Shown here: positions 5,406-32,000 of the stretch, in pieces | Layout: every line of letters starts with the position of its first letter | Numbering within the stretch: the first letter of the stretch is position 1 | From: Thermosulfurimonas dismutans | GTDB lineage: Bacteria > Desulfobacterota > Thermodesulfobacteria > Thermodesulfobacteriales > Thermodesulfobacteriaceae | DNA length: 32,000 nt | Assembly (NCBI RefSeq): GCF_001652585.1 | Contig: NZ_LWLG01000002.1 | Span: 150,001-182,000, forward strand | Direction of reading: 5' to 3' | The notes under the pieces: generated by a model | The model's database searches: none | What the model saw: the letters and a program-made list of their open reading frames with translations, nothing else | What the model was told of the DNA's origin: nothing | Position numbers and translations under genes: made by a program

Positions 5406-5406
5406 T

Positions 5407-6983: not shown

Positions 6984-7098
6984 TATGCCCCCTCTTTCCC
7001 TTTCATAGCCTAAATGAATTGCTCTTGTCAAGTAGCCAAAGTAATTTATCATTTATAGATACTTTAAAACTAAACATTTCGTATGGATCTAAATTAAG

Positions 7099-15251: not shown

Positions 15252-16903
15252 AAGTTCAAATTGCAAGGAAGGCTGGTTTTTGTATGGGGGTAAGACGGGC
15301 CATGCGCCTGGCCCTCAAGGCTGCCGAGACCTCGGGGAAACCGGTTTACACCTATGGCCCTCTCATCCATAATCCCCAAGCCTTGGAGCTTCTGGAAAAA
15401 CTCGGCATCCGAGATCTCAAAAAAGTGGCTAGGGCCGAAGGGGGTATCGTTATCATCAGAGCGCATGGTATTCCCCCTGAAGAAAAAGAAGAACTCCTCC
15501 ATTCAGGCTTTGAGGTCGTTGATGGCACCTGCCCCAGGGTGGCCAAAGTTCAGGCCCTGGCCCGAAAGTACACTCAAGATGGGTATCAGGTCGTTATCAT
15601 AGGAGACAAGGATCATGCCGAAGTAAAAGGCATTCTGGGCTATACCTCCGGAAAAGGTATAGTAGTAAGCAACTTCCAAGACCTCGAAAGTCTTCCGCCC
15701 CTAAAAAAATACGTCATTCTCTCTCAAACCACCCAGGACGAAGAAATCTTTGAACTCCTTTCCCAAGAGATCCTCTCAAAATATTCCGGAGGTCGGGTCA
15801 TAAACACCATCTGTCATGCTACTCACGTAAGACAAGAAAGTATCCGAGAGCTAGCCCGAGAATGCGAAGCCATCGTAGTAGTAGGAGGCCGAGGAAGTGC
15901 CAACACCAATCGCCTAGTGCAGATAGCTCGGGAGGAAAATCGAACAGCCTACTTAGTAGAAACCCCGGAAGAACTTCCATTGGAGGAACTCTCTAAATTT
16001 CAAAAAATAGGGGTCAGCGCAGGCGCTTCCACCCCGAACTGGCTTATAAACGGGGTGGTAGAAAAACTGGCGGCGGCCGGAAACCCTTTGCGGAAGCTAT
16101 TATGGATCCTCCTCAACTCCCACCTGATCCTTGCCGGTGGCCTCTCGGCCTTATATGCTGGAACGAGCCTATGGTTGGGGTCTGGACCTAAAGTGCCCCT
16201 TTTATTGGCCGCCTTTTTTCTGGCCTTTTTTGCCCATACCTGGAACTCTCTGGTAGCCATAGGTCCCCTTTCGCTGTGCAATCCTTACAAGGCCCGGCTA
16301 TTCAAAGAACACGAGCGCCTTTTGGTGATCTTGACTTTACTTTCCCTTGCGGGGGCCCTGATCTGTACTTTTCGTGCCGGACCGGGTTACTTGATATTAA
16401 CCGCTATTTTAGGGGGATTATGTGCTCCTTATAGCATTTCTCCTTTAAGAAGGATGTTTCTCGGGAATCGAACCATCTTCATCGCTCTCTTTTGGACCAC
16501 CGTAGCTCTCCTATTTGCTTTGAACTTTCCTGTGCCTATCCAAAACCTCTTGATCTTTGGCGTTCTCACCTTAACGCTTTCGGCCTTTCGTGCCCTCTAT
16601 ATTGACCTCATGGATCTCTTTGAAGACGGTTTTCTGGGACAAGAATCCTTGGCGGCTTCATTGGGAGAAAAAAGAGCTATTTATACTCTTGGCTTTCTCA
16701 TCCTCATTGGTGCAACCTCCACTTTAGGAGCTATAAAGGCCTATGGCCTCAAAGCTCTTGGTCTTTTACCTCTATGGTTATACGGGATCTTCCTGGTATT
16801 TGTTCTCCGAAAAAAACCCCTTGGCCAGCGATTAAAGCTTGAATACCTCGGAGAAGGCTTGATCTATTGGTATTTAATACTGAGCCTTCTTGCGACAAAA
16901 TAA
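15248..16903 (+). CDS. ispH: 4-hydroxy-3-methylbut-2-enyl diphosphate reductase (IspH/LytB) fused to a C-terminal polytopic membrane domain (UbiA-like)
   Basis: Residues 1-280 are IspH, with the three cluster cysteines (GFCMGV, DGTCP, NTICHAT) and SAGASTP. Residues 280-551 are about eight hydrophobic helices with a UbiA-type second motif YIDLMDLFEDGFLGQESLAASLGEKRA. There is an ATGA overlap with radC. Confidence 0.85.
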   Translation: MKVQIARKAGFCMGVRRAMRLALKAAETSGKPVYTYGPLIHNPQALELLEKLGIRDLKKVARAEGGIVIIRAHGIPPEEKEELLHSGFEVVDGTCPRVAKVQALARKYTQDGYQVVIIGDKDHAEVKGILGYTSGKGIVVSNFQDLESLPPLKKYVILSQTTQDEEIFELLSQEILSKYSGGRVINTICHATHVRQESIRELARECEAIVVVGGRGSANTNRLVQIAREENRTAYLVETPEELPLEELSKFQKIGVSAGASTPNWLINGVVEKLAAAGNPLRKLLWILLNSHLILAGGLSALYAGTSLWLGSGPKVPLLLAAFFLAFFAHTWNSLVAIGPLSLCNPYKARLFKEHERLLVILTLLSLAGALICTFRAGPGYLILTAILGGLCAPYSISPLRRMFLGNRTIFIALFWTTVALLFALNFPVPIQNLLIFGVLTLTLSAFRALYIDLMDLFEDGFLGQESLAASLGEKRAIYTLGFLILIGATSTLGAIKAYGLKALGLLPLWLYGIFLVFVLRKKPLGQRLKLEYLGEGLIYWYLILSLLATK

Positions 16904-18044: not shown

Positions 18045-19952
18045 ATGAAAAAAGTCAAAGAGAAAAAAATCGAAGAAATGAGTATCGATCCAGCCGTTCA
18101 GGAAATTTTACAATTAGCCTCGGAAAAAGGCTATGAAACGGTTTGGGATAGACTGAATTCCCAATCTCCCCACTGTAAGTTCGGTCTGAATGGTCTCTGC
18201 TGCAAAAACTGCATTATGGGGCCATGTAGAATTACGCCAAAAACTACGACCGGGGTCTGCGGGGCCGAAGCGGACACCATTGTTGCCCGCAATATAGTGC
18301 GTGGTATTGCCGCAGGAGTGGCGGCCCATTCTGATCACGGTAGAGCGGTAGCCATTCTCCTAAAAGAAGTAGCCTGCCAAGAAAACAAAGATTACACAAT
18401 ATTTGATACCGAAAAACTTAAAGCCGTGGCCACCAAACTGGGAGTTGATACTGATAGAGATATTCATGAAATCGCCAAGGATGTAGCTGAGATTGCTCTT
18501 AAGGATTTTGGAAAGCAGGACGATAAACCGCTCAAATTCCTTGCCTCTTATGCCCCGAAAAAAAGACTAGAACGGTGGCTGGATTTAGAGAAAAAACTTT
18601 ACTCTGAGACCGACAAGAAAACGGGGGTTATTCCGCGAAATATTGACCGAGAAGTGGCTGACAGTATGCACCGCACCACTATGGGAGTCGATCACGATCC
18701 TCTTTCTTTGTTGATTCAAGGCGTAAGAGCCTCTCTTGCCGATGGATGGGGAGGATCTTTAATCGCTACCGAACTTCAGGACATCCTTTTTGGCACTCCT
18801 CGGATCAGAACTATCATGGCTAACCTTGGAGTAATCTCTCCAGATCATATCAACATCGTGATCCACGGACACGAGCCCATCCTATCTGAAAAAGTAGTTG
18901 AAATCGCAAATACTCCCGACATGCAGAAGTTGGCCCAGGAATATGGAGCTAAAGGAATCAATGTCGTAGGTATGTGCTGCACAGGAAATGAAATCCTAAT
19001 GAGACAGGGAGTACCAGTAGCGGGAAATGAACTCCATCAGGAACTGGCCATCCTGACCGGAGCCGTAGAAGCTATAGTAGTAGATGTCCAGTGTATCTAT
19101 CCTGCTCTAGGCAAGTTGGCCAAATGTTTCCATACGAAGTTCATTTCGACCAGCGATCGAGCCAAATTTCCGGGATCGCTTCACATACAGTTTGAAGAAG
19201 AACACGCCAACGAGGTGGCCAAAAAGATCGTTAAAACCGCTATCGAAGCCTTTCCGAAAAGAGATAAAAGAAAAGTACACATACCATCTTTCAAATCTGA
19301 AGCCGTAGTGGGTTTCAGTAATGAACAACTCCTAAAAATTCTTGGTGGCAGTCTAAAACCCCTTGTCGATGCTATACTGGCCGGAGACATCAAAGGAATA
19401 GCGGGTATCGTAGGATGCAATAATCCTAAAGTAAAACACGACTATTACCATGTTACTTTAACCAAAGAATTAATTAAACGAGATATCCTTGTTATCGGAA
19501 CAGGATGTTGGGCCATCGCAGCCGCAAAGGCCGGATTAATGCGTATTGAAACTCAAGAACTGGCCGGAGAAAGGCTAAGAAAAGTCTGCAAAGCTTTGAA
19601 TATTCCGCCGGTCATTCACATGGGCTCGTGCGTAGATTGTTCCCGAATGCTTACCCTAGCAGGTGCTATTGCAGATTATCTTGAGGCCGATATATCAGAC
19701 CTTCCATTGGTTGGATCGGCACCTGAATGGACTACCGAAAAGGCGGTCTCTATTGGAACCTATTTTGTAGCTTCTGGAGTCCCTGTTCATCTTTGGCCTG
19801 CTCCTCCTATTTCGGGTAGCCCCAAAGTGGTAAGCCTTTTGACCCAAGAAATTAAAAATCTCTTAGGCGGTTACTTTTTTGTAGAAGAGGACCCGATCAA
19901 AACTGTGGACATCATGGAAGCGATAATTCAGGAAAAAAGAAAAGCCTTATGA
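18045..19952 (+). CDS. cooS: Anaerobic Ni,Fe carbon monoxide dehydrogenase catalytic subunit
   Basis: 635 aa. The N-terminal B/D-cluster motif is CKFGLNGLCCKNCIMGPCRI. C-cluster ligand contexts are HGHEP, GMCCTGNE, DVQC, GCNNP, GTGCW and MGSCVDCSR. A strong AAGGAGG SD is present. Confidence 0.92.
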   Translation: MKKVKEKKIEEMSIDPAVQEILQLASEKGYETVWDRLNSQSPHCKFGLNGLCCKNCIMGPCRITPKTTTGVCGAEADTIVARNIVRGIAAGVAAHSDHGRAVAILLKEVACQENKDYTIFDTEKLKAVATKLGVDTDRDIHEIAKDVAEIALKDFGKQDDKPLKFLASYAPKKRLERWLDLEKKLYSETDKKTGVIPRNIDREVADSMHRTTMGVDHDPLSLLIQGVRASLADGWGGSLIATELQDILFGTPRIRTIMANLGVISPDHINIVIHGHEPILSEKVVEIANTPDMQKLAQEYGAKGINVVGMCCTGNEILMRQGVPVAGNELHQELAILTGAVEAIVVDVQCIYPALGKLAKCFHTKFISTSDRAKFPGSLHIQFEEEHANEVAKKIVKTAIEAFPKRDKRKVHIPSFKSEAVVGFSNEQLLKILGGSLKPLVDAILAGDIKGIAGIVGCNNPKVKHDYYHVTLTKELIKRDILVIGTGCWAIAAAKAGLMRIETQELAGERLRKVCKALNIPPVIHMGSCVDCSRMLTLAGAIADYLEADISDLPLVGSAPEWTTEKAVSIGTYFVASGVPVHLWPAPPISGSPKVVSLLTQEIKNLLGGYFFVEEDPIKTVDIMEAIIQEKRKAL

Positions 19953-19979: not shown

Positions 19980-20025
19980 GACAGGGCAGATGCTATAATT
20001 TAAAAAATATCTGCCCTGTCTTTTT
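19980..20025 (+). terminator. Rho-independent terminator downstream of cooS
   Basis: A perfect 12-bp stem pairs GACAGGGCAGAT (19980-19991) with ATCTGCCCTGTC (20009-20020). The loop is 17 nt and is followed by TTTTT (20021-20025). Confidence 0.7.
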
Positions 20026-20030
20026 AAAAA

Positions 20031-20729
20031 ATGTTTTCTGTAATATTGAATTATTTGCGCCATAGTTTTAATGTAGGAATAGTTATTTTCGACGAAAAAT
20101 TTAATATTCTTTGTACTAATGAAACCATAGGAAAAATCGTAGACTTCCATTTTAGTCATGACAATTTGATAAACCTTTTTGATATCCATTCAGAGGAAGC
20201 CTTCAAAAAAATAAAACAAATGGTAAAAGAAGCCAGAAATGATCGCAGAAGCGATAATTATGTTTTAAAAATCTTTTCCAAAAAAGGAGAACGAGATACA
20301 ATTTTACTCGGAAAAGTCTTTCTCCTTGACAGTCAATGTCAAAACCAATTTATCGCTTTGCTTTATGATGTCACAGATCTAGTAATGGAAGGGCACAAAA
20401 CTATCGTAAAATTACCTGCCTATGAAGGCAATGATCTTCTCCTTTTAAATGTAGAAAATATACATTTTTTGAAAGCTGCAGGGAATTATACTGAGATTTT
20501 TTGTGATAACAAGATATATTTGAGTCCTCTTTCTATGGCTAAAATAGAAAAAAAGTTAGATCCTCGTCAATTCATCAGAATTCATAGGAGCTTCATTGTA
20601 AACATTGACAAAGTGAAAAAACTCATCAAAGCAGATGGCAAATATCGCGTTTTATTACAAAACGATCACAACTTACCTCTAAGCCGAAATAAAACTGATA
20701 CTTTTCTAGAAATGTTTGGTTTGAAATAG
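20031..20729 (+). CDS. Single-component PAS-LytTR transcriptional regulator, RcoM-like (candidate CO-responsive regulator)
   Basis: The C-terminal LytTR domain is LLLLNVENIHFLKAAGNYTEIF...FIRIHRSFIVNIDKV. The N-terminal 120 aa or so is PAS-like (VGIVIFDEKFNILCTNET...). There is no receiver domain. It lies immediately downstream of cooS. Confidence 0.65.
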   Translation: MFSVILNYLRHSFNVGIVIFDEKFNILCTNETIGKIVDFHFSHDNLINLFDIHSEEAFKKIKQMVKEARNDRRSDNYVLKIFSKKGERDTILLGKVFLLDSQCQNQFIALLYDVTDLVMEGHKTIVKLPAYEGNDLLLLNVENIHFLKAAGNYTEIFCDNKIYLSPLSMAKIEKKLDPRQFIRIHRSFIVNIDKVKKLIKADGKYRVLLQNDHNLPLSRNKTDTFLEMFGLK

Positions 20730-20827
20730 TATATCTCTTTGGCGTAGGCTAGATTAACAAACTGGAAGGCTATATGATTTCGAAATACCCTTGCCTTCCT
20801 TCACAAAGAAAGCTATTTTAAACAAAA

Positions 20828-22351
20828 ATGGCGCCCTTTAGGCTTTCTCTCCCCTGCAAAGGACTGGCTTGTAAAATTCTTTGCGGAAGTGGATTGGCAA
20901 TTCTAATCCCTTTTATTTTCTTTTTCGTCTTTCTGAGATATCACGACCAAAAATGGATGGAATATGAACTTCGATCACAAGCCAGGGCTATTTATAGGTT
21001 GATAACTGTTACTAGACAATGGATATCATGGCATGGAGGTATTTATATTAAAAATGATGACAATTTTCAACTTTTAACTCCTTCGCACTTTGTAAGAGAT
21101 CTTTCTTTGTTTTCCAAAAACAATCTACCTTATACTATAAAAATAGCCGTAGAAAATCCCAAAAATCCAGCTCATGAACCGGATGAGTTTGAAAAAAAAG
21201 CTATAGAAATTTTCAAAAATAGAGGACGTGAATATTGGAAACTAGAAAAAAATCTTTATAGATATGCAGCTCCCCTTACGTTTAAAACCGAATGTTTAAG
21301 TTGTCACCGATGGTCCAAAGAAAAGACTATTGCAGGCTGCATAAGCATTTTATTATCTACAGATAAAATCAAGCAACATTTAATTGAAAGACGGCGCATA
21401 ATAAATACTTTCTTTATTTTAACGTTTGCTTCAATGATAATTAGCCTGTCATTACTTATTAGAAAGTGGGTTTTAAATCCTCTAAATAAATTCAAAGTCG
21501 CAACTCAAAAAATAAAAGAAAGAAAATATATACAGGTAGAAATAAAAACAGAAGACGAATGGCATGAACTAGCAGAAACGTTCAACGATATGATCAATAA
21601 AATTAGGAACCATCAAGAAGAATTAGAAGCAAAGATCAGAGAAGCTACAGAAAAGTTGAGGACTGCGTACGAAGAGCTAAAGAAAACCGATCAATTTAAG
21701 AGTGAATTTTTTTCAAACATTTCCCATGACCTAAAAACTCCTTTAAGTGCCATCAAAGGCACTATTGACTTTCTCCTCCGAAAAAATCCCCATGATCAGC
21801 ATTTATTGATTGCTCAAAAGAATGTTCACAAACTACTCCAAATGATTAACACCATCCTAGACATTACAAGATTAGAGCACGGACAACTGGAATTAAATAA
21901 GGAGCTTTTCGATTTGCGGGAACTTGTTGAGGAGGCCTGCGTAGCCCATCAGCCTTTGGCCTGGGAAAAAGACATCAAAATCTCCTGGGAAATACCTCCT
22001 CATCCTTTGTGGGTTGAGATTGATCCTGAAAGGATGTACGGTGTAATTTCAAACCTTATCGATAATGCCGTCCGATTTTCTCCCCCCAATACTGAAGTCA
22101 TAGTTAGAGCTTTCAAGGAAAACGATAACCGTGTTCTTTTAGAGGTGGAAGATTACGGTCCTGGAATAAACTCGGAAGAAAAAAATCGTATCTTTGAAAA
22201 ATTTTATCATAAACGTTCGGGAGGATTGGGTTTGGGATTAGCCATAAGTTATGGTATTATAAAGGCCCACGGAGGAGATATTTGGGTAAAGGACCCGGAA
22301 GGCCACAAAGGAAGTATTTTTGTTATAACTTTACCCCTAAAAAATGCCTAA
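20828..22351 (+). CDS. Sensor histidine kinase with a periplasmic c-haem (CXXCH) DUF3365/Tll0287-like sensor domain, HAMP, HisKA and HATPase_c
   Basis: Two TMs flank a 155-aa or so periplasmic domain containing YRYAAPLTFKTECLSCH (CXXCH at nt 21293-21307). It also has the H-box FFSNISHDLKTPL, the N-box NLIDNAVRFSP and the G-box GGLGLGLAISYG. Confidence 0.85.
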   Translation: MAPFRLSLPCKGLACKILCGSGLAILIPFIFFFVFLRYHDQKWMEYELRSQARAIYRLITVTRQWISWHGGIYIKNDDNFQLLTPSHFVRDLSLFSKNNLPYTIKIAVENPKNPAHEPDEFEKKAIEIFKNRGREYWKLEKNLYRYAAPLTFKTECLSCHRWSKEKTIAGCISILLSTDKIKQHLIERRRIINTFFILTFASMIISLSLLIRKWVLNPLNKFKVATQKIKERKYIQVEIKTEDEWHELAETFNDMINKIRNHQEELEAKIREATEKLRTAYEELKKTDQFKSEFFSNISHDLKTPLSAIKGTIDFLLRKNPHDQHLLIAQKNVHKLLQMINTILDITRLEHGQLELNKELFDLRELVEEACVAHQPLAWEKDIKISWEIPPHPLWVEIDPERMYGVISNLIDNAVRFSPPNTEVIVRAFKENDNRVLLEVEDYGPGINSEEKNRIFEKFYHKRSGGLGLGLAISYGIIKAHGGDIWVKDPEGHKGSIFVITLPLKNA

Positions 22352-23030
22352 AGAACGCATCCTTCTCATAGAAGACGATCCGGACTTGCAGAAAATACTG
22401 AGTTCCCAATTTGAACTCGATAATTATACGGTAGAAGTAGCTGGCAGTGGCAAAGAAGCCCTTGAAAAAATAAAAGACTTTCAACCCGAACTTATTATTC
22501 TGGATCTCAACCTTCCCGACACCGATGGTCTCAAACTCTGTAAAAGTTTGCGCTCTATCACCAAGGCCCCTATTATCATCCTTACGGTAAGGGATAACCT
22601 TTCGGACAAACTAAAAGGGTTTGAAATGGGGGCCGACGACTACCTCACCAAGCCCTTCGAATATCTTGAACTGGAGGCCAGGGTCCGTGCCTGCCTGCGC
22701 CGGGCGAGGCTCATAAGTCCCCAAAAAGAAGAACTTGACTTCGGGCACTTTAAGGTCATCCCCGCTAAACGGGAGGTATGGGTAAAGGACCAAAAGGTTC
22801 ACCTTACCAGGAAAGAGTATGATCTATTAGAACTATTCATCTCCCATCCTGGCGAGGTCTTAAGTCGCGACTTTATCAAGCAGGAAATCTGGCCCAATAA
22901 AGAGATTTATCCCTGGAGCCGCACTTTAGATGTCCATATCAAAAGACTACGAGAAAAGATCGAACCCGACCCCGAAAATCCTAGATATATCATTACTCAC
23001 CCTGGAGTGGGTTATCGTTTTGAACCTTAG
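22344..23030 (+). CDS. OmpR/PhoB-family response regulator
   Basis: The receiver has the LIILDLNLPDTDG acceptor Asp and a KPF motif. The winged-helix output contains LTRKEYDLLELF and GVGYRF. It overlaps the kinase stop by 8 nt. Confidence 0.9.
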   Translation: MPKERILLIEDDPDLQKILSSQFELDNYTVEVAGSGKEALEKIKDFQPELIILDLNLPDTDGLKLCKSLRSITKAPIIILTVRDNLSDKLKGFEMGADDYLTKPFEYLELEARVRACLRRARLISPQKEELDFGHFKVIPAKREVWVKDQKVHLTRKEYDLLELFISHPGEVLSRDFIKQEIWPNKEIYPWSRTLDVHIKRLREKIEPDPENPRYIITHPGVGYRFEP

Positions 23031-23880
23031 AATTTCCAGTTTTAGATTTTTCATTTAAGGGTTTTAAATAATAATTTCTTTTCCAGTAGAAACTCAAAGC
23101 TCCAGTAGGACAGTAATCCACACATTCCCCACAATTCCAGCAATAAGGACTATAAGAACCTCCTCGATTGACGGGTAATCCCATAGGGCACACCTTTTCG
23201 CATATTCCACATTGGGTACATTTCTTACTTCTCAGTCTAACTTTCAACTTTCTTTTATGTCCAATGAAGGATAGCAACCCTCCTAAGGGACAAAAATATC
23301 GGCAATAAAAACGACGGGTAAAAAGATGTAAAAAAAGGATGAGCAGTACTATGAGACCTTCCAGAGCTAAAGAATGAAAAATAATACCCAACATGAGTTC
23401 TCGACCGACAAGACCAGGAGGAGAAATAAAAACAAAAATAGGGAAACCCAATATCATAGAAAGAACAAACTCTCCAATCAAAGCAAACCAAATAATTTTC
23501 AAGGCAAGAACAATCTTATCCTTCCACGTAAGAGGATTAAAATTAAAAAATTTTTTTCTTATTAAATCAATAGTTTCATGCAGAAAACTAATTGGACAAA
23601 TCCAAGAACAAAAGACACGCCCTAAATAGAAAGCTACTATAATAGGTATAGATATTCCAATAAGGGAGGGCAAATAAACATACTTAGAAATCAACAAACT
23701 CTCCAAACCTTCGAGAGGAGAAACAATCCATAACCTGCCTATCCCAAGAGATTGATACCATCCTTGAACGAAAGTGAAGTGAAAATACAAGTTAAGAATA
23801 GGAGTCAATAAGATCAACAAAAAAGCTGCACTTAAAGAAAGGTAACGCCATTTACGATATTTTGTCCGTTTTCTAGGCAT
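22993..23880 (-). CDS. napH: NapH-type membrane quinol dehydrogenase subunit (polytopic, 2x[4Fe-4S])
   Basis: It has four TMs with CSWICP and CRYFCPLGG motifs. The C-terminal ferredoxin motifs are CTQCGICEKVCP and CWNCGECVDYCP. It follows napG with a TAATG overlap. Confidence 0.8.
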   Translation of the reverse strand: MPRKRTKYRKWRYLSLSAAFLLILLTPILNLYFHFTFVQGWYQSLGIGRLWIVSPLEGLESLLISKYVYLPSLIGISIPIIVAFYLGRVFCSWICPISFLHETIDLIRKKFFNFNPLTWKDKIVLALKIIWFALIGEFVLSMILGFPIFVFISPPGLVGRELMLGIIFHSLALEGLIVLLILFLHLFTRRFYCRYFCPLGGLLSFIGHKRKLKVRLRSKKCTQCGICEKVCPMGLPVNRGGSYSPYCWNCGECVDYCPTGALSFYWKRNYYLKPLNEKSKTGNSKVQNDNPLQGE

Positions 23881-24443
23881 TATTTTGAAGCCTTAAAGGC
23901 ATAAATTGGCTCTATAACTATAGCCTTTGGTTTTACAGGACAAGAATAGGTACAAAGACCACAGCCCACACAGGCCTCTGGAACAACTATCGGACGCAAA
24001 CGGTCCAACTTAATAGCCTGTTCTTTAAAAGGACAAGCGTTATAACAAGATCGACATATACCCGTTCCGTTCCAGGTTACACATAAGCGTCTGTTCACTC
24101 GAGCAAGTCCCATACGGACTTCTTTCTGAGAGACCTTTTGTAAAGTTCCTGTGGGACACACCTTTACACATCGCATGCACAAATAACAGGGGATCTTTTC
24201 GGCATAGATTACGGGAGTACCGGCATAAAATCCATGCTTGATATCCAAAATCTTTATGCTCCTATAAGGACAACTCTCGGCACAGCGCCCACATCGAATA
24301 CAACGAGAAGCAAAAAAATCCTCGGGGATGGCTCCTGGAGGCCTTAACACGTTAGTTTTAATCGGAGAAGATGTAAATTCTCCCGGAGCACATCCTACTA
24401 AAATTCCCGTGGCCAAAAATTTTAAAAACAATCTCCGATCCAT
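23880..24443 (-). CDS. napG: NapG-type periplasmic ferredoxin (Tat signal, 4x[4Fe-4S])
   Basis: It has the twin-arginine leader MDRRLFLKF. The four Cys clusters are CIRCGRCAESCP, CYLCMRCVKVCP, CRSCYNACP and CVGCGLCTYSCP. Confidence 0.8.
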   Translation of the reverse strand: MDRRLFLKFLATGILVGCAPGEFTSSPIKTNVLRPPGAIPEDFFASRCIRCGRCAESCPYRSIKILDIKHGFYAGTPVIYAEKIPCYLCMRCVKVCPTGTLQKVSQKEVRMGLARVNRRLCVTWNGTGICRSCYNACPFKEQAIKLDRLRPIVVPEACVGCGLCTYSCPVKPKAIVIEPIYAFKASK

Positions 24444-24731
24444 TTACTCCTTCCAAGGCCTCTCTGGGACGTATTCTCCTTTCTCTATTCGTTCAACCTC
24501 GTCTTCCACATTGAAATAAGCTACATTAACCGAAAGCACCCCTTCTATCTTTTTAGGCCATTCCTTTACTTCTTTTTCCATTTCCTCAAAAGTATCCCCT
24601 TCATAAACCACTACCATTTCTCCCTTATCGTTCCAGCCGTGTATCTCCAATCCGGAAACTTTAGAAAGGGAAGATTTTACTTCTTCCAATTTCTCAGGAA
24701 TGAAACAGATCACCAAACCGGCAACAGGCAT
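24444..24731 (-). CDS. napD: NapD-like Tat-proofreading chaperone for NapA
   Basis: About 95 aa with the pattern VAGLVICF...VSGLEIHGWNDKGEMVVVYEG...IEGVLSVNVAYF, as in the NapD ferredoxin-like fold. I chose the ATG at 24731, preceded by GAGGTGAGGTG. The longer GTG start at 24776 would lie inside a terminator hairpin. Confidence 0.65.
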   Translation of the reverse strand: MPVAGLVICFIPEKLEEVKSSLSKVSGLEIHGWNDKGEMVVVYEGDTFEEMEKEVKEWPKKIEGVLSVNVAYFNVEDEVERIEKGEYVPERPWKE

Positions 24732-24747
24732 TTTCACCTCACCTCTC

Positions 24748-24773
24748 AAAAAAAGCCGGGCATAAAGCCCGGC
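24748..24773 (-). terminator. Canonical intrinsic terminator between napA and napD (minus strand)
   Basis: The minus strand reads GCCGGGC-TTTAT-GCCCGGC followed by TTTTTTT. The napD SD and ATG come immediately after it. Confidence 0.6.
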
Positions 24774-24784
24774 CACGCATCCAA

Positions 24785-24813: not shown

Positions 24814-27216
24814 CTACATTTTATGACCTACCACATAGGGTCTGAGCGGTTTGGGGCCGGATACCTTCCGAATTCGGCAGGCACAGATCTTGAATTCCGG
24901 TTCTTTCGAGCCAGGATCGAAGGCGTCTTTGGTAACCCGATTGGCCATACGCTCTTCATGCATATCATGCCAGTAAATGAACACCATGCCCTCAATCGGC
25001 CCCTCATAAACCTTTGCCGGAAGCACGATCTTGCCACGGCGGGTTTCAATTTCGACCATGTCGTTGGGATTAATACCCAGCCTTCTGGCGTCCTTGGGAT
25101 TGATCTCTACGTAAGCATAAGGGTTGGCCCGTAAGAGTTCCGGAATACGGCCAGTCATACTGCTGGTGTGCCAGTGATCAATAACCCGTCCGGTGGACAG
25201 GAAGAACGGATATTCAGCATCCGGCTCCTCAGCCGCACCCTTGTAAGGCCTAAGCCAGATATAGAGTTTGTGATCCTTGTGGGCCGGACCATAAAAGACA
25301 TAAGGATCATCGCCCTTAGCATGCTTGTCTGCCAGAGGATCGATACCCCTGACGAACTTTTTATAGGTTCCTCCCTTGAGGGCGTGTTCCTTAGTAGGCG
25401 CCGGCCATTGCACCCCGTCCGGACGCTGTTTAAGCACCTCATAGGTGACTGCGGAAAGGTCATTGTCCCGACCTTTAGTTAGTTTCTGACTGTATTCTTC
25501 CCAAATGGCCTTCGGAAGTTCATACCCCTCCTCAAGGCCTATAAAGGGTTCTACACACTTCTTAATCACAGGGTCGTTAAGTTCCTTGGCCAGCCGAAGA
25601 GCCCACTCCCTTACGATCCAGACCTCGGGCTTGGCCTCTCCGGGAGGATCTATCACTTTGACCGTAAGCTGTGAACGACGCTCGGTGCATCCGTAAACAC
25701 CGGTCTTTTCAAAATGAAACGCTGTAGGGAGAACCAAATTGGCAACTTCCGTGGTCTTGGTAGGGAAGATGTCTGTAACCACTATAAAAACATCATCGCG
25801 CCGAAGACCTTTACGATAGAAATCACAATTAGGAAGACTCTGGGCCGGACTAGTACAGTTGATCCACATAGCCTTGATTTTGCCCTCATTCACCGCCCGG
25901 AACATGGCAATGGTATGATATCCAGGCTTGGCCGGAATACGACCACGGGGTACACCCCAGAGATCCTCTACCTCGTGACGAAGTTTATCGATCTTAACCG
26001 GTCGGTGAGCTGGAAGGATATGACAAAGTCCGCCCCCTTCACGCACACCTCCACAGGCATTGGGCTGCCCAGTAAGAGAGAAACTGTCCGCTCCAGGTTT
26101 ACACAACTGCCCGGTTAAAAGATGGAGGTTGTGAATCAGATTGTTGGCCCATACTCCTCGGACACGCTGATTGATCCCCATGGTCCAAAGAGACATAGTA
26201 GCCTTGGACTTGGCAAACCAGCGGGCCGCAGTGCGAATCTTTTCCGGAGTAATGTTTCCACCACAAATCTCAGCCGCCCTTTCCGGGGTGTACTGTTTCA
26301 GAAATTCCTTGTATTCCTCAAAGGATACATCTTTGGGAGGTTTACCTAATTTAAATTTGCAATACTTTTTAATAAAGGTTTCATCGTAAAGCCCTTCCTC
26401 AACAATCACGTAGGCCATAGCATTTAGAAGAGCCAAATCCGTCCCCGGACGGAACTGGAGATGGAGGTCCGCAATTCGGGAAGTAGGCGAAACCCGTGGA
26501 TCGGCGTTGATGACCTTGACCTCGTCGGGCTTGGATAACTTGCGGTTCATCACCCGCCGGAAGAGAACAGGATGACACTCCGCCATGTTGCTTCCAATGA
26601 TGAAGAAACAATAGGCCTTCTCGATGTCGGCGTAAGATCCGATAGGTTCATCGGCCCCGAAAGAAGTTAGGTAACCTCCAACGGCACTGGCCATGCAAAG
26701 CCGGGGATTACCCTCTACGTTGTTAGTCCTTAGACCGGCACGCATCACCTTTTGAAAGATATAGGTTTCCTCCGTGAGGGCCTGACCGGAACCGTAATAA
26801 GCTACCGAATTGGGACCGTGGTTTTTGACGGCTTCGGCAAACTTTTTAGCAGCAATATCTAAGGCCTCTTCCCAAGAGATTTCACGAAAGGGTTGATCCT
26901 TGCGCTCACGATAGAGAGGTTTCTTGAGTCTTTCAGGATGGTGAATTATTTTATAAAAAAGCATACCTTTCATGCAAACATAACCTTTATTGGTTGCAGA
27001 CTCGGGGATACCTTTAATAGCTACAGGTTTTCCTCCCTTGAGACCTAAGTAAACCCGGCACCCTACTCCGCAAAAACGGCACACACCGGGTTTCCAACTA
27101 TCTACATCCGCAGCCTGGGCTGCGTCTTTCATGCTTTTAGGAAGCTCTATACCAACCAGGGAAGCCGCTGTTAATGCGGCCGTCCTTTTAATAAATTGTC
27201 TTCTACTAAGCTTCAT
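24814..27216 (-). CDS. napA: Periplasmic nitrate reductase catalytic subunit NapA (Mo-bisMGD, [4Fe-4S], Tat signal)
   Basis: 800 aa with the Tat leader MKLSRRQFIKRTAALTAAS. The N-terminal FeS motif is CRFCGVGCRVYLGLKGGKPVAIKG. It has molybdopterin oxidoreductase architecture and is followed by napD, napG and napH. Confidence 0.9.
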   Translation of the reverse strand: MKLSRRQFIKRTAALTAASLVGIELPKSMKDAAQAADVDSWKPGVCRFCGVGCRVYLGLKGGKPVAIKGIPESATNKGYVCMKGMLFYKIIHHPERLKKPLYRERKDQPFREISWEEALDIAAKKFAEAVKNHGPNSVAYYGSGQALTEETYIFQKVMRAGLRTNNVEGNPRLCMASAVGGYLTSFGADEPIGSYADIEKAYCFFIIGSNMAECHPVLFRRVMNRKLSKPDEVKVINADPRVSPTSRIADLHLQFRPGTDLALLNAMAYVIVEEGLYDETFIKKYCKFKLGKPPKDVSFEEYKEFLKQYTPERAAEICGGNITPEKIRTAARWFAKSKATMSLWTMGINQRVRGVWANNLIHNLHLLTGQLCKPGADSFSLTGQPNACGGVREGGGLCHILPAHRPVKIDKLRHEVEDLWGVPRGRIPAKPGYHTIAMFRAVNEGKIKAMWINCTSPAQSLPNCDFYRKGLRRDDVFIVVTDIFPTKTTEVANLVLPTAFHFEKTGVYGCTERRSQLTVKVIDPPGEAKPEVWIVREWALRLAKELNDPVIKKCVEPFIGLEEGYELPKAIWEEYSQKLTKGRDNDLSAVTYEVLKQRPDGVQWPAPTKEHALKGGTYKKFVRGIDPLADKHAKGDDPYVFYGPAHKDHKLYIWLRPYKGAAEEPDAEYPFFLSTGRVIDHWHTSSMTGRIPELLRANPYAYVEINPKDARRLGINPNDMVEIETRRGKIVLPAKVYEGPIEGMVFIYWHDMHEERMANRVTKDAFDPGSKEPEFKICACRIRKVSGPKPLRPYVVGHKM

Positions 27217-27237: not shown

Positions 27238-27612
27238 TTATTCAGCATGCTTTTTGAAAAAATGGGGACTATGGCACTCCCAACAAGCTTTATCCTTAGG
27301 ACAATTGTCGTAGGCATTGGAATGACAGGTACGACAAGTCTCCCGAGTAGGCTCATGAAAGGTCTCAAAGGTTCCATGACACTGGAAACATTTGACCATA
27401 GCAAGACCATGACGAGACTTAAACCATTCTTCATAAACCTCAGGGGTAGCCTCCTTGTGGCATTCACTACAGGCGATCAACTTTTCATCCTCCGAGAGCT
27501 CAGGATGAGCAACCGCTGGCTTTTCCGCAGAAGGTGCCGGCGCTTTCTGAGGAGCACAGGCAAAAACAAGAGCCGTTAAACCTAACAAAAGTATCCCCAA
27601 CCTTGTCTTCAT
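27238..27612 (-). CDS. napM: Small tetrahaem c-type cytochrome, probable lipoprotein (NapM-like)
   Basis: It has four CXXCH motifs (CSECH, CFQCH, CRTCH, CWECH) in a mature protein of about 105 aa. The signal ends in LVFAC. I chose the ATG at 27612, preceded by AAGGAGGG. It lies 21 nt upstream of napA. Confidence 0.7.
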   Translation of the reverse strand: MKTRLGILLLGLTALVFACAPQKAPAPSAEKPAVAHPELSEDEKLIACSECHKEATPEVYEEWFKSRHGLAMVKCFQCHGTFETFHEPTRETCRTCHSNAYDNCPKDKACWECHSPHFFKKHAE

Positions 27613-27640
27613 CACTACCCTCCTTAAAAAAGAAGATTTA

Positions 27641-27663
27641 GGGGGAGGCAAAATACCTCCCCC
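27641..27663 (-). terminator. GC-rich hairpin with a U-rich tail between the porin gene and napM (weak or partial terminator)
   Basis: The minus strand reads GGGGGAGG-TATTTTG-CCTCCCCC followed by TAAATCTTCTTTTTT. It sits 12 nt after the porin stop. Confidence 0.4.
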
Positions 27664-27675
27664 CTGTCAATTAGC

Positions 27676-29160
27676 TTAGAAAGTGAAACGCAGTTCGGCG
27701 TAGAAGAAAGTTAGATCCTCGTCTTTGGCGTAATTATCCTCGACAACATCATCCCCCCAGATATGGCTGAGATAGAAATCAAGCCCGACCTTAACACCAT
27801 TGTATTGATAAATGTCCTTAATAAATACCGAGAGATCCCACATGGTAAGAAGATCGTCGCTCTTTCCAAGGTGAGCTCCCTTGGTGGCGTAACTCAGCAC
27901 ATCGGGACGCATCATACCGGAGCCGAGGTACCAGTAGTCTTCCTTTTCGGTAAGATCCACAAAGTGGACATCCGAACGCACCACCACCTTCTTATGGGGT
28001 TTGAGAATAACCTGAGCCATCCAGTAATTGGTGTTCATAAAGGTGTAAGAGGGGGTAAGGGAGTATATCCTCAAAGTGGGAATCATCATGAAGAAGGTCT
28101 CATGATCGCCATCATTAGGATCATCGTCGCCAGTACCATAGAAATAACCCACACGGAACCAGGGCTGCCAGGGGAGATTCTTAAACTTGTAACCGGCCTC
28201 AATGGCTATGGCATAAGCATCATGATCCAAAGTAGGATTGCGTCCCCAAACTCCCCACTGGTAGCCTCCCCAGAGGAGGAAGTCGGCAGTGCCAGGCCCA
28301 ATATCATAGGCATAGATAAGATGACCTCCGATCATATTGACTTCACAATCACCAAGGCCGTCTCCACCGGCAAGCTTCCTCTCATCGTTGTAGTAGTAAT
28401 AGAAAACCTGAGCATCCAGGTTGGGAATATAAGGATTGGTGTCTTTAAGGCTCAGGACCGCAGTAATAATGTCAATGTCGTGAGTGGACTCCCCGTTCAT
28501 TTCTGGATCATCCCGACGGAGATAAAAACCACCCGGAGTGGGATGCATGTAAGAGATGGTAAGATTCCAAGGATTAAAATCGTAAGAGAGCACACCACCG
28601 TCAAAAGCCCGGCCCACACGCGACCAATCAAAGGGACCGATCATGCGCTGAGAAACGCGAACCTTTTTCACCCACTTGAGGGTTCCATTTTTGGGAAGAC
28701 CACCTTCTAAGCCAGATAGATAGAAGAAACGTCCGAGCTTGACACTTAGGCCCGGAACCATTGGCGGTTTAACCCGGACCCAGGCCTGAGAAATGGCCCC
28801 ATAACCAATATCCGTAGCCTTATTCGGATCCGTACCAAAAGCACCATTGAATTGATAATAAAGCGCCCCCAATCCGAACTGCCCATCATCAGGAAGATTA
28901 AAGAATTGGGTCCAATGTAACTGCGCGTAAGCATCCACTACCGAAGAAGTAAAACCGGCACCGAAACGCATCTTGCTCGAAACGAAGGAATAATCCTCAT
29001 CTTTTCCCGCAGCACCACTATCGAAAGTCTCCCAGTACTCATACCTGATCTCTTCCTTAAAATCCAACCTAGCTTTAATCTTGCCCTCGACCGTATAGGC
29101 CAGGGCCCCAGAGACCCAAACAAGAAATCCTACCAATGCCAACCATGTCCATCTCTTCAT
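27676..29160 (-). CDS. Outer-membrane beta-barrel protein (porin-like; possibly of the alginate-export/AlgE-like or anion-porin type)
   Basis: 494 aa with the signal peptide WLALVGFLVWVSGALA. It shows an alternating amphipathic beta-strand pattern rich in Y/G/W/D. The C-terminal OMP signature AELRFTF ends in Phe. Confidence 0.7.
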   Translation of the reverse strand: MKRWTWLALVGFLVWVSGALAYTVEGKIKARLDFKEEIRYEYWETFDSGAAGKDEDYSFVSSKMRFGAGFTSSVVDAYAQLHWTQFFNLPDDGQFGLGALYYQFNGAFGTDPNKATDIGYGAISQAWVRVKPPMVPGLSVKLGRFFYLSGLEGGLPKNGTLKWVKKVRVSQRMIGPFDWSRVGRAFDGGVLSYDFNPWNLTISYMHPTPGGFYLRRDDPEMNGESTHDIDIITAVLSLKDTNPYIPNLDAQVFYYYYNDERKLAGGDGLGDCEVNMIGGHLIYAYDIGPGTADFLLWGGYQWGVWGRNPTLDHDAYAIAIEAGYKFKNLPWQPWFRVGYFYGTGDDDPNDGDHETFFMMIPTLRIYSLTPSYTFMNTNYWMAQVILKPHKKVVVRSDVHFVDLTEKEDYWYLGSGMMRPDVLSYATKGAHLGKSDDLLTMWDLSVFIKDIYQYNGVKVGLDFYLSHIWGDDVVEDNYAKDEDLTFFYAELRFTF

Positions 29161-29191
29161 GACTTAAACCTCCTTATTTTTTTAATTTTTT

Positions 29192-29764
29192 CTAAAGCCA
29201 TGCCTGCATAATTTTGCGAATTAACAAAGGAGAATAAAAAGTGACGTAAACCTTAGCTCGGGCCTTGGGATCTTTCTGATTAGCAAACTCTACTATTTTG
29301 TGGTCGCAATACAGCTTTACTATAGCCAAAATTTTGGGCTCTTCGCCCTTTTCAACTATACGGTTGAAGGTTTCTGAGGAAATTTTTCCCTTGGGAGAAA
29401 AATACCAGAAGAGTATCTTGTCATGGGCCTCAAAAGTGGGCTCCCCCAAAAGCCCCATAAGTTCCCCCACCAACCTCTGCAACTCTTGGGGAGCGATACG
29501 TGGGAACTCATCATAAAGTGCTAAAATTCGCCGACTCTTCTCTTCTATCGCCACTACCAGAGAACCATTTTTAAATCGGAGGGTTCCCGGAAGAGCCCCT
29601 TTTAAAGGCCTAAGATCTTTCGCCCCCTCTAACTTGTCACCAAGACGAAAATCTTTATAAACAAGATTCAACTGTTGAATCTTCTCTAAGTCGGAAGCCA
29701 GCACTACCGTTCCAAAAAACAAGCACAGGATCAGAACAAGTCCCACCGCCTCAAGAACTTTCAT
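29192..29764 (-). CDS. Hypothetical secreted/periplasmic protein, about 190 aa, no family recognised
   Basis: I chose the ATG at 29764 (MKVLEAVGLVLILCLFFGTVVLA signal), preceded by GGTAGAGGA. The ORF is clean and runs in the same direction as its neighbours. I recognise no motifs. Confidence 0.5.
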   Translation of the reverse strand: MKVLEAVGLVLILCLFFGTVVLASDLEKIQQLNLVYKDFRLGDKLEGAKDLRPLKGALPGTLRFKNGSLVVAIEEKSRRILALYDEFPRIAPQELQRLVGELMGLLGEPTFEAHDKILFWYFSPKGKISSETFNRIVEKGEEPKILAIVKLYCDHKIVEFANQKDPKARAKVYVTFYSPLLIRKIMQAWL

Positions 29765-29782
29765 TCCTCTACCCCGAATTAA

Positions 29783-29810
29783 AGCGGGGGAGGATATGCC
29801 CTCCCCCGCT
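29783..29810 (-). promoter_or_regulatory. GC-rich stem-loop 3' of the octahaem cytochrome gene
   Basis: An 11-bp perfect stem pairs AGCGGGGGAGG with CCTCCCCCGCT around a 6-nt loop. It lies 6 nt after the stop. Only a short TT follows, so it is not a canonical terminator. Confidence 0.45.
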
Positions 29811-29816
29811 TCACCT

Positions 29817-31451
29817 TTACTGACCCTTTCCATAGCGTTCTTTGTATTCCTCCTCTACCTGCTTCATGAGCGCTCCAAAACCCTTTATTCGCCAGCTATG
29901 CTCAGGAGTGTTCAGGATCTCATTGATGAGCTTCTGGTACTTCTCAAGTTTGCCGTGCTCCTTAGCCACCTCGAGGACCTCGGGGATGTACTCGTAGTAG
30001 AAGTGATTGGCAACTTCATAGAGCCCATGCCAGTGGGTGTAGTCCGGACCGAGCATAGCGGCTCCGTGACGGGCACGACGACCTTCATGATGCCAGATCT
30101 CAAACCAGATCCAACCCACCTTGGACATGAAGGGGGACTTGGGCACCAGACCGTCCTTGACCAGCTCGGAGAAGATGCGCTTGGCGGGCTTAGCAAACTT
30201 CTCGTTATAAGTGACCACCAGGGCATCAAACTGCTCATAGAAGTTATCCACTTGCTGCATGCTGTGACAGCTCTTACAGACCTCTTTCATCTCGGCCCGG
30301 CGCTCCTTCCAGCTGATCACCTCCTTCACCTGTTTCTTAGTCTTCACCTTCACTAGCTTGTCACCCTTGCGCACGTAGTCGTAGACCTGCACAAATTGCC
30401 CGGGAAGAGGCGGAATGTCTCCGGGAATGTCGTAAACCTTGCCGTCCGTAGTGATCACCCGGTTCAGCTTCACCGAGATCGGCGGACGTAGATTCCAAGA
30501 GATACGGTCTCCCACATTGTGGGTGTTTGGCGCGATAGAACCGTTGGATTTCACATAAGCCCCCATATGACAGGTAGAGCAGGTAGGAGCGAAGTGATAA
30601 TCCTTACCCAAGACCCAGCTACCGGTCTTAAGGATGTTCATCCCCATAAGCCCCCGCTCTCTGACCGCAGAAAGATAAGCAATTCCGTGCTTGGATTCTT
30701 CATAAACCTCCTTCTGGGGATGATCCGGACCCAGGTGACACTTACCACAAGCAAAGGGCTGACGAGCCACACTCGCCCGAAAAGCGTGCTTGGAGTGACA
30801 GGCATTACATGAACCCTTAGTGCCGTCAGGATTGATCCGCCCCATACCACTGTTAGGCCAGGTGGAAGGATCAAACTGAGGCGCTCCAGTTTTATTGCGA
30901 ATAATGTTTCCTTTCTCGTCTTTCAGAACCTTGACCACCGATCCGTGACACTGCCAGCAAGCATTCTGAGCATCAGCCTTGGCCGCGTAAGCCGGAAGTC
31001 CCCACTTCTTCACCGACTCCGCCGGAGCACTACAGATCACCTCTCCAAGGATATTATCCAAGGATGCCATGATCTGTCCGGCCGTAGCATGATGGGAATT
31101 CTCAAACTCTTTAAATTCTCGGGAATGACAATAAGAGCAATCCTTGGGACTAATTAGGGTCTTAATAAAGGCCCCTTCGTGGTTATAACCCAAGGGATCC
31201 CCGGCATCAGCCGCGTGACAGGTGTAACAACCCACCGGGCCTTCTTTGGCTGCCGCATGGGGAGATTCCTGCCACTGAAACACCAAAGACTTGTTCTCCT
31301 TAAGGTGACACATCATACACTTCTTGTTCAATTCTTTAACTTTAGGATTAGTGACATCCTTAGAAAACTCCGTAGTAGCCCAACCAACTCCTCCCAACCA
31401 AAAAACACTTGCTACCATTACACCTAACAATCTCAAAAACCTCCATCTCAT
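29817..31451 (-). CDS. Octahaem c-type cytochrome of the hydroxylamine oxidoreductase (HAO) family, probable reductive type
   Basis: It has eight CXXCH motifs. The block CNACHSKHAFRASVARQPFACGKCHLGPDHPQKEVYEESKHG closely parallels the HAO core, and APTCSTCHM also matches. It has a Sec signal. I chose the ATG at 31451, preceded by GAGGAGGTG, over the TTG at 31466. Confidence 0.85.
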   Translation of the reverse strand: MRWRFLRLLGVMVASVFWLGGVGWATTEFSKDVTNPKVKELNKKCMMCHLKENKSLVFQWQESPHAAAKEGPVGCYTCHAADAGDPLGYNHEGAFIKTLISPKDCSYCHSREFKEFENSHHATAGQIMASLDNILGEVICSAPAESVKKWGLPAYAAKADAQNACWQCHGSVVKVLKDEKGNIIRNKTGAPQFDPSTWPNSGMGRINPDGTKGSCNACHSKHAFRASVARQPFACGKCHLGPDHPQKEVYEESKHGIAYLSAVRERGLMGMNILKTGSWVLGKDYHFAPTCSTCHMGAYVKSNGSIAPNTHNVGDRISWNLRPPISVKLNRVITTDGKVYDIPGDIPPLPGQFVQVYDYVRKGDKLVKVKTKKQVKEVISWKERRAEMKEVCKSCHSMQQVDNFYEQFDALVVTYNEKFAKPAKRIFSELVKDGLVPKSPFMSKVGWIWFEIWHHEGRRARHGAAMLGPDYTHWHGLYEVANHFYYEYIPEVLEVAKEHGKLEKYQKLINEILNTPEHSWRIKGFGALMKQVEEEYKERYGKGQ

Positions 31452-31466
31452 ACAGCACCTCCTCAA

Positions 31467-32000
31467 CTATTTTTTATAGGTTTTAACCTCTTCCGTTCCA
31501 AGCCATAATGGAAAAATTTTGGAAAGAACAAACAATATAATTATAGGGGCAATAAGAATAATAATGGTAGGCAAAATACCTTCTTTCTCGAAGAACTCGG
31601 GATGATAAAACACAAAGCCTCTACCACTCTTAGACATCATTTGACCACCCACTACCACATTCCAACGCATGCAGTAAACCTGAATAAGGAGCATAATTGA
31701 AGAAATCGCAGACAGATATTGCAAGGCCTTACCTCTCACATTTGCTAAAGATAATACTCCAAGAACTACCAGAGGAATGAACGAGAAAATAAAAACTTGC
31801 ATTACCCAAAAACTAACATAAAGAGGACCAAATAGCAGTTCATGCAAATGATGCCAACTTTCTTTCCTTAAATAGGCATGAACTCCGACTTCAAGAAGCT
31901 CAAAAACTACGTCGATAATAAGAAATCCCCACAAGTATTTTACCAAAGAAGAAAGACACTCTTCGTCTACAGCGCGACCTTTAACCCAGTGAACAAACAA
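31467..32000 (-). CDS. NrfD/PsrC-family polytopic membrane (quinol-interacting) subunit; C-terminal part only, the gene continues past the window edge
   Basis: It is open to the window end, so the apparent Met is an edge artefact (TTG). It has several TMs and MRWNVVVGGQ, which is typical of NrfD-like proteins. The stop lies 15 nt before the cytochrome ATG. Confidence 0.7.
   Translation of the reverse strand: MFVHWVKGRAVDEECLSSLVKYLWGFLIIDVVFELLEVGVHAYLRKESWHHLHELLFGPLYVSFWVMQVFIFSFIPLVVLGVLSLANVRGKALQYLSAISSIMLLIQVYCMRWNVVVGGQMMSKSGRGFVFYHPEFFEKEGILPTIIILIAPIIILFVLSKIFPLWLGTEEVKTYKK

Follow-up and report, generated by a model that had tools for sequence, protein, structure and literature searches.

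Gene content of the locus

The stretch of DNA analyzed in this study, hereafter the window, covers 32 kb of the genome of Thermosulfurimonas dismutans. On its minus strand, the genes for an NrfD-family membrane subunit, an octaheme c-type cytochrome of the Hao family, a protein of 190 amino acid residues (aa), an outer-membrane beta-barrel of 494 aa, NapM, NapA, NapD, NapG, and NapH follow one another in this order. The 190-aa protein (the small protein) and the barrel are the subject of this work. A preliminary description of the window had placed two co-directional genes between a Hao-type cytochrome and NapM, and both genes are found there. The interval is the junction of two modules, at which two functionally separate genes happen to abut.

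The barrel gene (27676..29160, minus strand) begins with an ATG at 29160 and stops at 27676. The ribosome-binding site AAGGAGG is located 8 nucleotides (nt) 5' of the start. Its product possesses a Sec signal peptide, in which ...SGALA is followed by YTVEG, and ends with ...FFYAELRFTF, the C-terminus from which a large barrel had been recognized before. The gene of the small protein (29192..29764, minus strand) runs from an ATG at 29764 to a stop codon at 29192. The product is a small secreted or membrane-anchored protein whose N-terminus, MKVLEAVGLVLILCLFFGTVVLA followed by SD, forms a hydrophobic signal or anchor, consistent with its earlier reading as a signal-peptide protein of about 190 aa. 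It is 100% identical to a hypothetical protein of T. dismutans. An alternative start at 29833, which would give 213 aa, was rejected, as it overlaps the 3' end of hao and is unsupported by the orthologues.

The coordinates given in the preliminary description are correct as well. The Hao-family cytochrome upstream (29817..31466, minus strand) is a protein of 549 aa with eight CxxCH motifs, and it is preceded by the gene of the NrfD-family subunit, of which only the C-terminal part is contained in the window (31467..32000, minus strand; cut by the window edge). Downstream of the barrel gene, napM (27238..27612, minus strand) encodes a tetraheme lipoprotein with four CxxCH motifs and the lipobox LVFAC; its start is most likely the ATG at 27612, which gives a polypeptide of 124 aa. 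The genes napA (24814-27216), napD (24444-24776), napG (23880-24443), and napH (22993-23880), all on the minus strand, were identified with Pfam and NCBIfam.

The arrangement had been called an undescribed accessory module, which is right in part. Both genes are included in the "11-gene cluster" that was published for T. dismutans and Dissulfuribacter thermophilus, where both are listed with "unknown function" (Slobodkina et al., 2017; PMC5276818). Our literature search found no report that gives either the barrel or the small protein a role, and nothing relevant on a nitrate porin or on the Pfam family Alginate_exp (PF13372) tied to nitrate.

Family and fold of the barrel

The barrel matched Alginate_exp with an E-value of 1.8e-21 and 76.8 bits (cut-off 25.2) over residues 38-439. 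The same family was matched by all of its homologues (65/65), and the NCBI name for the close ones is "alginate export family protein." At E ≤ 0.1, the only other Pfam match of the barrel was a sub-threshold one to BBP2; the MtrB/PioB, OprO/P (Porin_O_P), and OprD families were not matched. In addition, neither the barrel nor the small protein matched any family of NCBIfam, and hence none of the Nap accessory families (NapB, C, E, F, K, and L).

The AlphaFold2 model of the barrel, built from an alignment of 31 sequences, had a mean predicted local distance difference test score (pLDDT) of 88.4 and a predicted template modeling score (pTM) of 0.86, and it contained 18 long strands. In a Foldseek search of this model against the PDB, AlgE ranked first (E = 5e-16, template modeling (TM) scores of 0.61/0.73, 12–14% identity). 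The top 17 matches were all AlgE, with TM scores of 0.57–0.74, and the second tier consisted of the 18-stranded Occ/OprD substrate channels. A profile of the barrel family searched against the PDB sequences, by comparison, did not detect AlgE and gave no match even at E ≤ 10. Thus, the barrel is a remote branch of the superfamily.

Ten arginine residues of the barrel (R39, R65, R144, R168, R172, R184, R261, R336, R364, and R395) are invariant or nearly invariant among the 31 sequences, whose identities extend down to 32%, while no lysine residue is. Three of the ten arginines are on a 40-residue loop between strands 5 and 6 that, by its position in the model, appears to correspond to extracellular loop 3. 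In many porins, extracellular loop 3 forms the constriction. By analogy with the arginine ring of AlgE, the ten residues may form an electropositive constriction in the barrel pore. The pore of AlgE is about 10 Å wide, electropositive, and lined with arginines; it binds citrate and passes iodide (PMC4118822).

Taken at face value, the Pfam family and the top structural match would make the barrel a pore for exopolysaccharide export. AlgE, which is such a porin and exports alginate in Pseudomonas aeruginosa (PDB 3RBH and 4AFK), is likewise a monomer-type barrel of 18 strands. Against such a function of the barrel stand the identity to AlgE of only 12–14% and the failure of the family profile to recover the AlgE sequence. 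Moreover, no polysaccharide synthase (Alg8/Alg44), AlgK-like lipoprotein with tetratricopeptide repeats, or modification gene is encoded in the 32-kb window, and no such synthase, AlgK-type, or modification gene is among the recurrent neighbors at the 80 barrel loci described below; the partners found for the barrel are nitrate and nitrite enzymes and transporters. A role in polysaccharide export is therefore barely credible, and the label "alginate export family protein" is probably misleading about the function of the barrel.

Genomic neighborhoods of the barrel

Relatives of the barrel were sought in a single genome for each GTDB species. At least 568 were found, and the best 80 were kept for comparison of their loci. 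The barrels of 33 of these loci are at least 50% identical to that of the window (the close loci), and those of the other 47 are 31–38% identical (the distant loci). The barrel gene is directly upstream of napM-napA in 27 of the 33 close loci, which is every one with enough downstream sequence. The downstream order in the 27 loci is napM-napA-(gene for an unknown protein of 226 aa)-napD-napG-napH; 25 of them extend to napH, and the contigs of the other two end earlier. In L016 and L030, the contig breaks off at or just beyond the barrel gene, ahead of a complete napA. In L001–L004, the barrel gene directly follows that of a methyl-accepting chemoreceptor with a PilJ sensor domain, with no cytochrome genes nearby. 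PilJ is the type of domain that binds nitrate in McpN (PMC6381276).

The upstream side of the barrel gene is more variable. In about 20 close loci, it is occupied by genes for an NrfH-type tetraheme cytochrome and an octaheme cytochrome of 454 aa, which is from a different branch of the Hao family and about 30% identical to the Hao of the window. In L005–L011, the barrel gene is directly preceded by a gene other than one for an octaheme cytochrome; an octaheme gene, where nearby, is usually beyond nap or on the opposite strand at a distance of several kb. Given that the upstream side varies, the invariant adjacency is that between the barrel and nap.

The gene for the protein of about 226 aa, which separates napA from napD in about 20 loci (L012–L031, L038, and L040; for instance, L019:11470-12117), is itself of note. 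Its product has a signal peptide and no match in Pfam or NCBIfam, and the gene is absent from the window and from L005–L011.

The gene order could also be taken for that of a porin-cytochrome conduit, the second of two alternatives offered in the preliminary description, in which the barrel would enclose NapM and/or the octaheme cytochrome or serve as their docking site and electrons would cross the outer membrane as in Mtr/Pcc-type systems. Similar to the MtrB/PioB/Pcc genes, the barrel gene adjoins multiheme cytochrome genes, one of which encodes a lipoprotein, and its position between an octaheme and a tetraheme lipoprotein gene is repeated in about 20 related loci. Different from MtrB/PioB/Pcc, which have more than 20 strands, the barrel has 18 strands in a fold whose best solved matches are AlgE and OprD/Occ, has no match to the MtrB/PioB-type Pfam families, and is not accompanied by an outer-surface cytochrome. 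Its close relatives in L001–L004 and many of its distant ones occur in cytochrome-free surroundings, the relatives in L005–L011 lack the octaheme gene directly upstream, and distant relatives adjoin genes for NarK, NasA, NirB, and ABC transporters and would serve cytoplasmic or ABC/MFS-based nitrate assimilation. Furthermore, extracellular electron transfer is unneeded for a periplasmic Nap that acts on a soluble substrate, nitrate. Such a conduit is thus highly improbable.

Among the distant loci, the barrel gene is found with a variety of genes for nitrate and nitrite metabolism. The order is NrtABC-barrel-NirB-NasA in L052 (Methylomicrobium), NarK-NasA-NirB-x-barrel in L068 and L080 (Abditibacteriaceae and a related metagenome-assembled genome (MAG)), and NarK-barrel in L060 (a planctomycete). 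In L041 (Binatia), NasA, NarK, and the barrel are encoded together with a cyanase-containing ABC cluster, and in L039 with the cyanase cluster only. NrfA-(Usp)-barrel is found in Armatimonadota/Fervidibacter, and NrfA is also encoded beside the barrel in a Thermoanaerobaculia MAG (L036, L043, L051, L056, and L070 for both groups). Adjacency to nitrate or nitrite genes was thus seen in five phyla, and the sequence clusters of the barrels follow the gene contexts.

Seven Binatia loci (L062, L066, L071, L072, L075, L078, and L079) have an Amt gene and an NtrBC-like pair beside the barrel gene. In these loci, the genes for Amt, the NtrB-like kinase, the NtrC-like regulator, and, on the opposite strand, a fusion of a Na+/H+ exchanger with PTS EIIA precede the barrel gene. 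In five of them, it is followed by genes for PFK (in four), a circularly permuted ATP-grasp protein, and a transglutaminase. This block is nitrogen-regulated in appearance and contains no nitrate enzyme.

The small protein and the Hao operon

The small protein had been described as lacking a recognizable motif, and no match was found in Pfam or NCBIfam; none of 49 members of its family matched Pfam either. A word-indexed search gave only two homologues, and the small protein was taken for an orphan, a result that was overturned by an exhaustive phmmer search. The latter identified 111 representative homologues, nearly all about 190–220 aa in length; the E-values of 66 were 1e-10 or lower. Orthologues at the same position, with identities of 45–54%, are present in Thermosulfurimonas sp. 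F29 and two other assemblies. The open reading frame is therefore real. All source names found for the homologues are "hypothetical protein."

The family shares the motifs PGT.KF, GEPT..AHDK.IYWAY..GKIS, ILATVK, and Y.IISS.PLL, and the residues P109, H114, W120, and K150 are invariant. The AlphaFold2 model of the small protein (pLDDT 94.6, pTM 0.85) consists of an N-terminal helix followed by an alpha/beta domain, and it matched none of the solved folds.

A metagenome scan with a subset alignment of 11 sequences returned 80 loci with a gene for the small protein. A Hao of the type found in the window (58–66% identity) is encoded immediately upstream of it in 61 of the 80. Because 17 of the remaining 19 loci lack upstream sequence, the informative loci number 63 and the real exceptions only two. 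Where the sequence allows, the gene preceding hao is that of NrfD. The recurrent operon encodes a cytochrome c (about 180 aa), a 4Fe-4S protein (about 270 aa), NrfD (about 395 aa), the octaheme cytochrome (about 530 aa), and the small protein (about 200 aa); in L164 and L165, only 2–3 nt separate hao from the small gene. A barrel gene is present at none of the 80 loci, and nap genes were found at only one. Conversely, a profile of the genus-level alignment of the small protein gave zero matches at the 80 barrel loci, and outside of the genus Thermosulfurimonas no homologue of the small protein was found near barrel relatives. The adjacency to hao in 61 of 63 loci and the lack of barrels at the 80 loci identify the small protein as the fifth gene of the Hao/NrfCD module, to which the NrfD-family gene at the window edge also belongs. 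The small gene abuts the barrel gene only in Thermosulfurimonas.

Directly after the small gene, L164 (10713-11846) and L165 (10608-11840) have a gene for a protein of 377–410 aa with a PEGA domain and a cytochrome c7-like region, which may be a further member of the operon in some lineages.

The preliminary description had considered the small protein as a plug or an assembly factor of the barrel, and a chaperone would be a similar case; the two genes would then form one module. Within Thermosulfurimonas the arrangement invites this reading: the two genes are separated by 12–31 nt that contain no hairpin, similar hairpins flank the pair, and both genes are probably on one transcript there. 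Outside of the genus, however, the two families part company, as neither set of 80 loci contains the other gene and the small gene directly follows hao. A barrel-dedicated role of the small protein is thus very unlikely. From its obligate synteny, the small protein most likely has a role with the octaheme cytochrome. It would act in the periplasm as a subunit, a membrane tether, or a maturation partner of the Hao-type cytochrome and not of the barrel.

In its position and type of product, the small protein can be likened to the HaoB/orf2-type proteins, as its gene is immediately downstream of an octaheme hao gene and its product is N-terminally anchored or secreted. HaoB of the ammonia oxidizers is considerably larger. 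Also different from the setting of HaoB, the family of the small protein is tied to an NrfCD-type quinol module and not to c554/cM552.

Hairpins around the two genes

Two similar and very stable hairpins exactly bracket the small gene and the barrel gene. The first (29780..29813, minus strand) is GC-rich, has a stem of 14 base pairs, and is located between the stop codon of hao and the start of the small gene. Its core is GGGGGAGG...CCTCCCCC and its tail is just TTTAATT; the free energy is -29.5 kcal/mol for a 66-nt stretch (-28.5 kcal/mol for the centroid, the hairpin alone), with z = -4.2. The second is terminator-like and is located with its T-rich tail at 27625..27664 (hairpin 27640-27664, minus strand), between the stop codon of the barrel gene and the ribosome-binding site of napM; its sequence is GGGGGGAGG...CCTCCCCC, with -21.2 kcal/mol and z = -3.4. 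The common core GGGGGAGG-N-CCTCCCCC was found at 27641-27663 and 29786-29807 and nowhere else in the 32 kb, where no occurrence is expected by chance. This repeat could be a repeated terminator or stabilizer element, or a trace of how the modules were joined. The 31 nt that separate the small gene from the barrel gene are unstructured.

Equivalent hairpins are present in Thermosulfurimonas F29 and in L082. Moreover, 21 of 23 Nap-clade loci have a GC-rich hairpin and a T-rich tail after the stop codon of the barrel gene. As the sequences of these hairpins differ, the element is conserved as a structure. The hairpin between the barrel gene and napM probably acts to terminate or attenuate transcription ahead of napM, or to stabilize the 3' end of the barrel transcript. 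In a scan for sigma-70 promoters, matches were no more frequent than in shuffled sequence, and none was in the intergenic gaps.

Proposed function of the barrel

The best-supported reading of the barrel, which we regard as somewhat probable, is that of a channel for anions of the nitrate/nitrite type that is linked to the reductases. This was the first alternative of the preliminary description. It is consistent with the AlgE-like fold, with the position of the barrel gene upstream of napMADGH in 27 genomes, and with the neighborhood of NarK, NasA, NirB, NrfA, cyanase, and PilJ genes. The barrel would be a substrate-selective channel for small anions through which nitrate enters across the outer membrane, with nitrite possibly passing as well, and it would deliver them to periplasmic NapA and to the octaheme nitrite-reducing module. 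The barrel gene would form one unit with napMADGH, even though a hairpin stands before napM; this hairpin would probably set different transcript levels, with an abundant barrel on the one hand and the enzyme genes on the other.

Several observations weigh against this assignment. The charge of the lumen is ambiguous by a strand-periodicity proxy, which is a weak basis for assigning pore-lining residues, and the mature barrel is net acidic (62 D+E vs. 43 R+K). The synteny within Thermodesulfobacteriota is partly inherited and not independent. The conserved hairpin could mean that the barrel gene and nap are transcribed separately. Nitrogen genes are absent from about 22 of the 47 distant loci. 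In addition, the barrel gene heads a cluster resembling those for organosulfonate uptake in four distant loci (L050, L054, L059, and L061; Methylobacter, Methylomonas, and Nitrosomonas), which encodes an SsuA-like binding protein with a TAT signal, a permease, an OsmC-like protein, an acyl-CoA-dehydrogenase/SfnB-like protein, and an ATPase. The sulfonate-like and the nitrogen-free loci show that the barrel family is not uniformly nitrate-specific. Finally, T. dismutans couples nitrate reduction to sulfur oxidation, and a sulfur oxyanion or polysulfide is a conceivable substrate. The NMT1_2 binding proteins of the four sulfonate-like loci, which had been candidates for NrtA, were sulfonate-like by NCBIfam and were dropped from the nitrate tally.

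These observations bear on the possibility that the barrel is a generic channel, or one for another substrate, such as sulfur oxyanions, polysulfide, sulfonates, or other small anions, that is merely carried along with nap. The sulfonate-like clusters, the loci without nitrogen genes, and the terminator-like hairpin that parts the barrel gene from napM all speak for it, and so does the ability of T. dismutans to oxidize or disproportionate sulfur compounds (PMC5276818, PMC4911364). Against it, the barrel gene immediately precedes napM at each of the 27 close loci whose flanking sequence suffices, regardless of the genes upstream, and it is independently paired with genes for NarK, NasA, NirB, NrfA, cyanase, and the PilJ chemoreceptor across the five phyla. 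Moreover, sulfur-metabolism genes are not adjacent to the barrel in the Nap clade. This explanation is rather unlikely. The family reads as one of small-anion channels that were recruited to varied uptake systems, in which the clade of the window is dedicated to the Nap nitrate reductase and the sulfonate-like clusters suggest a branch of sulfonate-type anion channels.

While AlgE carries a polymer outward, the barrel is proposed to carry a small inorganic anion inward. Similar to the OprD/Occ channels, which are substrate-specific, the barrel is 18-stranded; different from them, it has no match to the OprD Pfam family. The Occ channel OpdQ is regulated by nitrate and NarXL, so that such an architecture can be under nitrate control (PMC4694141). 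Different from the barrel gene, the gene for OpdQ lies outside of any nitrate-reductase cluster, and nitrate is not known to be the substrate of OpdQ. As proposed, the barrel would share with OprP and OprO, which are selective for phosphate and polyphosphate, the concept of an anion-specific channel of the outer membrane that is co-regulated with the corresponding uptake system in the periplasm or inner membrane and owes its selectivity to a set of arginines. OprP and OprO, however, are 16-stranded trimers of the Porin_O_P family, which the 18-stranded barrel did not match.

Regulatory genes and other features of the window

A histidine kinase (20828-22351, plus strand), whose Tll0287-like periplasmic domain contains one CLSCH heme c motif, and an OmpR-type response regulator (22344-23030, plus strand) are encoded convergently to napH. 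This kinase-regulator pair recurs beside the nap/hao genes in most related loci. The pair with the heme-sensor kinase may be the regulator of the cluster and may respond to nitrate, nitrite, or NO through its heme. Co-regulation of the barrel with nap, for example by this pair, is plausible.

Just upstream of the kinase gene, the window contains genes for a 635-aa protein of the Prismane/CO-dehydrogenase family (18045-19952, plus strand) and a LytTR-type regulator (20031-20729, plus strand). Further upstream, an open reading frame of 551 aa (15248-16903, plus strand) has a LytB (IspH) domain joined to a C-terminal region of weak similarity to UbiA prenyltransferases, which would be an unusual fusion if real. 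The GC content is low (0.31–0.36 vs. about 0.48) at 4001-7000, 20001-22000, and 23001-24000; these stretches cover pilM-pilN-pilO-pilP with the 5' part of a secretin gene, the genes for the LytTR regulator and the histidine kinase, and napH, respectively.

Implications

To our knowledge, the passage of nitrate and nitrite across the outer membrane is assumed to proceed without a specific protein and is usually left to general porins. If the proposed function of the barrel is true, models of how nitrate is scavenged at micromolar concentrations would gain a step. Such a step would extend to vent thermophiles, methanotrophs, Binatia, and Armatimonadota, and the barrel gene would be a marker for the nitrogen cycle in metagenomes. 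A broader proposal, which we put forward tentatively as possible rather than probable, has two parts that would both have to hold. First, this AlgE-like branch would be a dedicated entry route through the outer membrane for nitrate, nitrite, and cyanate in respiratory (Nap, NrfA/Hao) as well as assimilatory (Nas/Nrt/NarK) pathways of at least five phyla. Second, the small protein, with a fold unseen in solved structures, would be a new and obligate subunit of a widespread NrfCD-coupled octaheme Hao complex that carries out NrfA-independent ammonification of nitrite.

The small protein represents a family without a model in Pfam or NCBIfam that marks a specific NrfCD-linked operon of octaheme Hao. 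Reconstitution of the Hao enzyme or structural work on it should include the small protein. The operon itself is a candidate for an NrfA-independent pathway from nitrite to ammonium in T. dismutans as well as in many bacteria of sediments and vents.

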